From the NCBI RefSeq assembly GCF_003334305.1, contig NZ_QOWS01000001.1: DNA of 64,000 nucleotides; one strand, 5' to 3'. The notes below the pieces were generated by a model. It was not told the DNA's origin and ran no database searches. It was given only the letters and a program-made list of their open reading frames with translations. Each line of letters begins with the position of its first letter. Within the stretch, counting starts at the first letter, position 1. The translations under genes and the position numbers were made by a program. This DNA is from Escherichia coli. GTDB taxonomy: Bacteria > Pseudomonadota > Gammaproteobacteria > Enterobacterales > Enterobacteriaceae. Below, in pieces: positions 20,603-22,605 of this stretch.

Positions 20603-20761
20603 ATGGGGAATTTGCGAGTCAGCTTCCGCTGAAATGTAAAAGTTGCAGTCCGCTAAAAATACTTCTGAATTCGCTGTCCAAAGATAAAAACTGCCTGCTG
20701 CATTGGGTGTTAATCGTGGTTATTGTCGCGTCATCTTAAATTTGAGGGGTGACGGAACGCC

Positions 20762-21664
20762 ATGACAATATCGACAACTTCCACGCCGCATGATGCGGTA
20801 TTTAAATCTTTTTTACGCCATCCAGACACCGCGCGGGATTTTATTGATATTCATCTTCCCGCGCCGCTGCGCAAACTGTGTGATTTAACGACGCTTAAAC
20901 TGGAACCAAACAGTTTTATTGATGACGACCTGCGGCAATATTATTCCGACCTCTTGTGGTCTGTGAAAACGCAGGAGGGAGTGGGTTATATTTATGTAGT
21001 GATAGAGCACCAAAGTAAGCCGGAAGAATTAATGGCTTTTCGCATGATGCGTTATTCCATTGCGGCAATGCAAAACCATCTTGATGCGGGCTATAAAGAG
21101 CCTCCATTGGTGATCCCGATGCTGTTTTATCATGGTTGCAGAAGTCCTTATCCTTATTCACTCTGCTGGCTTGATGAATTTGCTGAGCCTGCGATTGCCC
21201 GTAAAATATATTCATCGGCTTTTCCGTTGGTGGATATTACCGTGGTGCCGGATGACGAGATTATGCAACACCGCAAAATGGCGCTGTTGGAGTTAATTCA
21301 GAAACATATTCGTCAGCGCGATCTGTTGGGATTAGTCGACCAAATTGTTTCGCTGCTAGTTACAGGGAACACTAATGACAGACAGCTAAAAGCCCTGTTT
21401 AATTATGTATTACAAACGGGAGATGCCCAGCGTTTCCGTGCATTTATTGGTGAGATAGCAGAACGCGCACCACAAGAAAAGGAGAAACTGATGACCATTG
21501 CTGACAGATTACGTGAAGAAGGGCGGAATGATGGATTAATTCTGGGCAAACGCGAAGAAGCCCTGCGTATTGCTCAGGAGATGCTGGATAGAGGTTTAGA
21601 CAGAGAGTTAGTTATGATGGTGACCCGACTATCGCCAGACGATCTTATAGCGCAAAGCCACTAA
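20762..21664 (+). CDS. rpnB: Recombination-promoting nuclease RpnB (YhgA-like, PD-(D/E)XK family)
   Basis: 300-aa translation matching the Rpn/YhgA-like family. Confidence 0.85.
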
Positions 21665-21711
21665 CCCTGTAACACCGGGAGTTAACTGGCGGATGTTTGC
21701 AGTAAACCACA

Positions 21712-22605
21712 TCAGCGAACGACATCCGCCAGCGCCTCTTCTAAATCGTACCAACGAAACGCAAAACCCGCTTCTTCCAGCCGTTTAGGCAGCGCGCGTT
21801 GTCCACCTAATACCAGTACTGAAGATTCGCCCATTAACAGCCGAATGGCGGTTGCGGGGACGCGCAAAATAGCCGGGCGATGCAGCGCATGACCGAGCGC
21901 ATGGGCAAATTGTTCATTGCGTATCGGGTAGGGCGAAACCATATTAAATGGCCCGCGCAGCTCGTTATCCAGCAGCCAGAGAATGCCGTTGACCATATCA
22001 TCGATATGAATCCAGGCAAGATACTGCCGACCGGAACCAATCGGCCCGCCCAGGCCAAGACGAAACGGTGGCAGCATTTTACCGAGAATACCGCCGTCCG
22101 GTGCCAGTACCACGCCGGTTCGCAGCAGGCACACTCGCGTTTTGTCACTTTGCGCCCGGCAGGCAATCTCTTCCCAGCGGGCGCAGAGTTTATGAGTAAA
22201 TTCGTTATGCGGCGGTTCCTCTTCGGTAACCACCACTTCACCTAAGTCGCCATAATAGCCCGTTGCCGAGCCGGAAATGAGTACCGACGGCGGCGTGTCG
22301 CTGGCATTAATCAAATCGACCAGTTTTTGCGTGATATTCCAGCGGCTTTGGCAGAGACGCTCTTTTTGCTCGTGAGTCCAGCGTTTATCAGCAATCGGTT
22401 CTCCGGCCAGGTTGATTACCGCATCAACGCCGTTGAGGTTGCTTTGATCGGCTAGCCCTTGCCATAGCGTCACCCGAGGGCCGAGAACGGAACTGGCTTT
22501 CTGTGGGTTACGCGTCACTACCGTGATTTGATGGCCCAGCTCCAGCAAACGCGGAATCAAATGGCGACCAATTAATCCCGTCCCTCCGGTGATCACTATG
22601 TTCAT
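21712..22605 (-). CDS. yfcH: Epimerase-family protein YfcH (NAD-dependent epimerase/dehydratase fold)
   Basis: 297-aa translation with N-terminal Rossmann motif (ITGGTGLIG). Confidence 0.88.

Follow-up and report, generated by a model that had tools for sequence, protein, structure and literature searches.

An in-frame internal start within Escherichia coli rpnB is that of the published RpnB-S antitoxin

The rpnB gene in the stretch of Escherichia coli DNA analyzed here (64,000 nucleotides, referred to as the window) contains an in-frame internal start site, and this site is that of the published antitoxin RpnB-S. It had been pointed out in a preliminary description, made by a model from sequence alone, which thus correctly rediscovered a gene-within-a-gene antitoxin that is already known. 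RpnB-S is among the few proven products of in-frame internal starts that oppose the corresponding full-length protein. We consider it highly probable that rpnB, in the allele carried by the window too, specifies two proteins in one frame, with the antitoxin RpnB-S restraining the nuclease RpnB-L. The present analysis established which site this is, how far it is conserved, where in the family it recurs, and what fold its product is predicted to have, and it lends the idea of selection on the internal start region modest support at the population level.

Upon re-reading and translating the DNA, every coordinate in the preliminary description proved exact. The core GGAG at 21481–21484 is followed, after a 6-nt spacer (aaactg, 21485–21490), by the ATG at 21491, which lies 729 nt (243 codons) past the rpnB ATG at 20762 and is therefore in frame, encoding 57 residues up to the stop codon at 21662–21664. 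The site had also been called a near-ideal ribosome-binding site, which is borne out by the predicted duplex between the Shine–Dalgarno (SD) and anti-SD sequences, with an energy of −8.7 kcal/mol as compared with −8.5 kcal/mol for the annotated rpnB start. This duplex is the strongest among 376 internal in-frame ATGs from 38 long open reading frames of the window, for which the first percentile lies at −7.45 kcal/mol. The RNA around the internal start is A-rich and shows no significant structure (z = −0.23), with both the SD sequence and the AUG in an open loop; a structured RNA element at this position was rejected on the basis of the same z value. E. coli records in RefSeq carry no separate CDS for rpnB-S. 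The GGAG-6-nt-ATG arrangement inside rpnB is not a chance motif. The coordinates of the features discussed here are collected in Table 1.

Table 1. Features of the rpnB locus, in window coordinates.
Feature	Coordinates	Strand	Remark
rpnB (yfcI) ORF, encoding RpnB-L, toxin, PD-(D/E)XK DNA endonuclease	20762–21664	+	300 aa; ORF list, RefSeq match
Transposase_31 / YhgA-like nuclease domain, residues 8–209	20783–21388	+	Pfam PF04754, E = 1.5e-89
Candidate sigma-70 promoter for short rpnB-S transcript: ATGACA 21375–21380, 17 nt, TTTAAT 21398–21403	21375–21403	+	Inferred
Invariant block, −24 to +30 around internal ATG	21467–21520	+	54 nt, 0 substitutions, synonymous sites included
Shine–Dalgarno AAGGAG of internal start (core GGAG 21481–21484)	21479–21484	+	SD duplex −8.7 kcal/mol
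Internal initiation codon (iTIS), Met244 of RpnB-L = Met1 of RpnB-S	21491–21493	+	Homologous to RpnA Met244
rpnB-S ORF, antitoxin, 57 aa + stop	21491–21664	+	Translation; identical to RpnB-L C-terminal domain
Hypervariable helix-1 segment, RpnB-S residues 11–21	21521–21553	+	Three Gxxx units; K-12 has two (GAMQ-GKHE)

The full-length protein is a clear member of the Rpn family, scoring 184.6 bits against TIGR01784, for which the curated cut-off is 52.1. In both the window and RefSeq, the gene lies in the order hisP-rpnB-yfcH, with hisQMP upstream and the convergent yfcH downstream, and, over the 1,161 nt queried, the rpnB DNA in the window shows 100% identity with that of E. coli strain A7 (RefSeq), where the gene is annotated as rpnB. 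RpnB-L is 65% identical to RpnA, and the alignment of the two is free of gaps before residue 254. The catalytic and functional residues reported for RpnA, that is, D11, D63, E82, Q84, R94, and D165, the last of these within the sequence PDDEI (PMC5350276), are all kept at the same positions in RpnB-L. Neither RpnB-L nor RpnB-S matched any of the defence families in PADLOC v2.0.0 (2023).

In E. coli K-12, the start site, its product, the raised toxicity of RpnB without RpnB-S, and the specific block of SOS induction by RpnB-S have all been shown by others. The preliminary description stated that small proteins from internal starts have been described for Rpn-family genes, and this agrees with the literature: Meydan et al. 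(2019, bioRxiv 10.1101/520783) saw Ribo-RET peaks within each of the five rpn genes, at internal starts that are in frame, and Zhong et al. (2023, PNAS; PMC10400941), using ribosome profiling with Onc112 and retapamulin, found an initiation signal in K-12 rpnB. In the latter study, all five Rpn small proteins, including RpnB-S, were detected as SPA-tagged products from the chromosome. That the short product counteracts the toxic full-length nuclease, as had also been proposed, is supported for the 53-residue product of K-12 rpnB. RpnB in which the internal start site and its ribosome-binding site were mutated inhibited growth more strongly, and RpnB-dependent SOS induction was blocked by RpnB-S but not by RpnA-S; a stop codon at D29 of RpnB-S abolished this block (PMC10400941). 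For the paralogue RpnA, mutation of the ribosome-binding site and Met244 led to loss of RpnA-S, and RpnA-S was found to bind RpnA-L and to block DNA cleavage in vitro (PMC10400941).

The published start can be placed at the ATG at 21491, since the numbering of D29 fits only a start at Met244, residue 29 counted from Met244 in K-12 RpnB being Asp, and since the region is identical to that in K-12. Indeed, the K-12 gene is the same gene at the same hisP-rpnB-yfcH locus, with the same Met244 start and 98% protein identity to that of the window; SD, spacer, and ATG are identical, and the identity spans positions −29 to +30 relative to the ATG. The gene-within-a-gene toxin–antitoxin pair suggested in the preliminary description is therefore the published RpnB-L/RpnB-S system, with an SD-ATG sequence identical to that of K-12. 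All functional data come from the 53-residue K-12 allele, and the window carries a 57-residue one; we infer that the latter would share the activity of the former in both translation and neutralization.

The predicted structure of RpnB-S (AF2; pLDDT 83) consists of three helices, comprising residues 3–33, 38–45, and 49–56. Its top fold match in the PDB is E. coli RpnA-S (7TH0), with a Foldseek probability of 1.00, a TM score of 0.74, and 40% sequence identity; the sequence match to the same entry has an E value of 0.002 (phmmer). The two small proteins share a long first helix within a three-helix fold, and their starts likewise correspond, both being Met244 preceded by AAGGAG and a 6-nt spacer, whereas RpnA-S is shorter (49 residues) and lacks the Gxxx units of RpnB-S. 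A Pfam scan with PF14261 (DUF4351) yielded no match for full-length RpnB, for RpnB-S, or for eight aligned RpnS sequences. Large summed scores of RpnB-S against designer pentatricopeptide-repeat (PPR) proteins were dismissed: each repeat contributes about 10 bits with an independent E value near 10, and ten identical repeats inflate the sum. The resemblance concerns 21530–21628 of the long allele (RpnB-S residues 14–46) and the designer PPR consensus DGLCKAGKLDEALKLFEEMVEKGIKPDVV, and we take it to be a chance likeness between helical hairpins.

Window and K-12 differ by a 12-nt indel, aligned at 21521–21532, from residue 12 of RpnB-S onward, so that RpnB has 300 residues in the window as compared with 296 in K-12, and RpnB-S 57 as compared with 53. 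At the protein level, helix 1 of the window allele is longer by a single four-residue unit and also has four substitutions, the corresponding K-12 stretch reading EEG-A----MQGKH-EEA in the alignment. Zhong et al. described strain variation in RpnS proteins in the form of four-residue repeats inserted 8–20 residues past the Met, and they found that RpnC-S with one repeat added no longer pairs with RpnC-L unless the latter has that repeat as well (PMC10400941). The indel lies within this range, and the length variant in the window thus fits the published pattern and represents no new kind of variation. The long allele (225-nt class) found in the window is the minority form, present in about 1,165 of the rpnB-carrying E. 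coli genomes (24%), versus about 3,591 (76%) for the short allele (213-nt class); within the short class there is an O157:H7-type subclass whose helices 2 and 3 diverge, and no third length was found in 60 evenly sampled E. coli records. The long allele also occurs in E. whittamii and one cryptic clade, and the short one (AMQGKH) in E. albertii and another cryptic clade. Neither allele is confined to a single Escherichia species, a pattern suggestive of either a polymorphism of long standing or interspecies recombination, and diversifying or balancing selection could have kept the two as a trans-species polymorphism.

How the pair would work is best described by the model already in the literature. 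RpnB-L would be translated from the ATG at 20762 as an N-terminal PD-(D/E)XK (Transposase_31) domain followed by a C-terminal three-helix domain, and, if unchecked, it would damage DNA. RpnB-S would be translated independently from AAGGAG-N6-ATG (21479–21493) and, judging from the literature, would be made more abundantly, largely from a shorter, more abundant transcript starting inside rpnB. The long helix 1 of RpnB-S is the helix through which RpnB-L would self-associate; by binding to the C-terminal domain of RpnB-L, RpnB-S would hold the nuclease in an inactive hetero-oligomer and thus act as an intragenic antitoxin resembling those of type II systems. In RpnA, binding through helix 1 has been demonstrated by structure and biochemistry; in RpnC, the demonstration relied on engineering of the repeats (PMC10400941). 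Since toxin and antitoxin share codons, any change in the number of helix-1 units strikes both partners together, which would keep the pair matched to each other and orthogonal to other alleles and paralogues. In cross-tests, RpnA-S did not neutralize RpnB, nor did RpnB-S neutralize RpnA (PMC10400941).

Among the alternatives, the one that survives best, although we hold it to be very unlikely, is that RpnB-S is made but is not primarily an antitoxin in the long allele, the chromosomal locus having no toxin–antitoxin or defence role in vivo. RpnB-S could then serve as a subunit for assembly or regulation, or else as a decoy that phage factors sense. Such a reading would accommodate the observation that chromosomal rpn deletions leave basal recombination unaffected (PMC5350276), as well as the demonstration of anti-phage activity, directed against T-even phages and assayed at pH 8.5 and low temperature, for the plasmid-borne RpnP2 and not for chromosomal RpnB, and the variation of the L:S ratio with the promoter, the reasons for which were flagged as unknown (PMC10400941). 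It is difficult to reconcile, however, with the specific suppression of RpnB-dependent SOS induction by K-12 RpnB-S and the increase in toxicity upon loss of the internal start (PMC10400941); moreover, a single helical unit and a few substitutions are all that sets the long allele apart, and the change is present in both partners. An antitoxin that restrains RpnB-L thus remains the preferred reading of RpnB-S, and chromosomal RpnB may take part in phage defence.

The start region is unusually conserved. In an alignment of eight Escherichia orthologues from E. coli, E. albertii, E. whittamii, and two cryptic clades, the block around the internal ATG is the longest invariant run in rpnB, with 18 codons free of substitutions where permutation gives a mean of 9.0 (P = 0.003); the second-longest run is at 21368–21393. 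At the level of populations, the 60-mer at 21461–21520 is identical in 3,912 of 4,756 rpnB-carrying complete E. coli genomes (82%), as compared with 37%, 33%, and 28% for three control 60-mers from rpnB. The variants sampled carried the synonymous changes CAA>CAG at 21475 and ACC>ACT at 21496, both outside the SD and ATG, which were intact in every rpnB sequence inspected. The preliminary description had named loss of the SD and ATG in close orthologues as speaking against the internal start; both are instead kept, within a stretch of 54 nt that is invariant across Escherichia. The freezing of synonymous sites up to +30 exceeds what is normal for a ribosome-binding site and may point to additional control at the RNA level, such as a site for an sRNA or a protein that sets the S:L ratio. 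We regard it as rather unlikely that such extra RNA-level control is what the 54-nt freeze represents, or that the 57- and 53-residue alleles constitute mutually orthogonal classes of toxin–antitoxin specificity.

The arrangement also recurs in the family, for which the five K-12 paralogues and two distant homologues were compared. GGAG-6-nt-ATG is found at the homologous codon (242–245) in all of the K-12 genes rpnA to rpnE, where the sequence continues with MT(I/L)A. The homologue from Erwinia, 56% identical, has GGAGAGG ahead of the homologous ATG, and the full-length Rpn protein of Sodalis phage phiSG1 (SGPHI_0024) has GGGAGG-6-nt-ATG at codon 243. The residues encoded across the SD differ between homologues (KE, GE, RE, and GEE), and the SD is therefore kept independently of the protein sequence.

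These comparisons bear on a second alternative, in which GGAG and ATG would arise merely because a conserved linker encodes Lys-Glu...Met, with no initiation in this strain. The motif does lie within a conserved protein segment, in which AAG-GAG simply encodes Lys-Glu, and RefSeq lists rpnB-S as no CDS of its own. Nonetheless, we give this reading hardly any credence, given that profiling and immunoblots in K-12 were obtained on an identical SD-ATG sequence, that the paralogues keep GGAG at the same spacing despite encoding different residues, and that synonymous sites are frozen over 54 nt. Pauses at SD sequences in ribosome profiling of E. coli have largely been put down to artefact. The least probable reading of all, to which we attach next to no weight, is that the internal SD-like sequence is no start site but an elongation pause that aids folding of RpnB-L, for which its position, precisely where the nuclease region gives way to the C-terminal domain, would be suitable; inhibitors specific for start sites trap ribosomes there and the small protein is observed as a separate product (PMC10400941; 10.1101/520783), pausing does not call for an ATG conserved at a fixed distance of 6 nt, and loss of the small product upon an ATG-to-CTG change, with folding and activity of the long protein unaltered, has effectively been shown for RpnA M244L. 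Even when combined, the three alternatives are improbable; they are disfavoured by the conservation of the SD independently of the encoded residues and by published data, from start-site profiling as well as genetics, for a start region identical to this one, and translation of the antitoxin RpnB-S from this site is the reading that we adopt.

A transcription start site has been reported inside every rpn gene on the basis of dRNA-seq (PMC10400941), and a relaxed scan for a corresponding promoter identified ATGACA-17-TTTAAT, which matches the consensus at 10 of 12 positions. Both hexamers recur at an unchanged distance in rpnA, rpnB, and rpnE, where the −10 one starts 93 nt ahead of the internal ATG, and rpnD has a variant form; the element is absent from rpnC and from the Erwinia homologue. 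It is embedded in the conserved coding motif NDRQ...LFNY and overlaps the invariant run at 21368–21393. A strict promoter scan did not call it, nor any other + strand promoter shortly upstream of the internal ATG, and the text of the Cappable-seq and SMRT-Cappable-seq supplements holds no entry for a mapped transcription start site at the rpnB locus. Judged by its hexamers and position, this element may be the internal promoter reported from dRNA-seq, in which case transcription would be predicted to start at about 21410–21412.

Other small proteins of related design offer instructive comparisons. Stand-alone RpnS-like genes (ypaA/rpnE-Ss; DUF4351, PF14261) encode the same kind of small helical antitoxin domain (PMC10400941). 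These are separate genes downstream of the toxin gene, whereas rpnB-S is nested in frame within it and has no match to PF14261. The pair mcrB/mcrB-S likewise involves a shorter, internal in-frame product that shares a domain with the long protein, although these proteins are unrelated to Rpn, and mcrB-S, in contrast to rpnB-S, appears in the annotation of the K-12 record as a second CDS. McrB-S modulates the long McrB protein.

A scan of contigs with the single RpnB protein gave eight loci, all from Escherichia except for one in an Erwinia MAG and one on a 380-bp contig labelled Novosphingobium. The latter, from the assembly of Novosphingobium sp. BW1 and with a coverage of 0.9, was discarded as almost certainly E. 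coli contamination and no real homologue; it consists of the 3′ end of a K-12-type rpnB, with a C-terminal protein sequence identical to that of K-12. A tblastn search against phages for a stand-alone mimic of RpnS, as a possible anti-defence protein, returned none that was convincing, the matches being bacterial contigs, short fragments, or the full-length Rpn protein of phage phiSG1. The carrier of this protein is a phage or phage-plasmid; the gene, annotated as "transposase", adjoins the tail-fibre genes, and the helix in its RpnS region contains a very long run of four-residue repeats, with five consecutive copies of GRQE and related units.

The gene itself is not universal in E. coli. All 5,426 complete genomes match at least the flanks, and rpnB is absent from 670 of them. 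In the Nissle strain (EcN), hisP and yfcH are separated by a gap of about 160 nt; homology with the window ends at 20671 on the left and restarts on the right at 21686, the two points being separated in EcN by about 27 nucleotides of unrelated sequence. The polymorphism in presence and absence, together with these junctions, indicates that rpnB behaves as a 1-kb accessory cassette (20672–21685 in the window). In E. coli ECNB21-M121, IS903B is inserted about eight codons into rpnB-S (at about 21513 of the window), truncating RpnB-L and destroying RpnB-S at once. The remaining 3′ fragment of rpnB in this strain is automatically annotated as "ISNCY family transposase", a label from which it follows that NCBIfam NF007418 still mislabels Rpn proteins as transposases. 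Just 3′ of the rpnB stop codon, a perfect inverted repeat of 11 bp, CTGGCGGATGT ... ACATCCGCCAG, with a loop of 25 nt (21687–21733) overlaps the 3′ end of the convergent yfcH. The repeat belongs to the yfcH side, since the right flank is kept in genomes without rpnB, and it may serve as a shared terminator.
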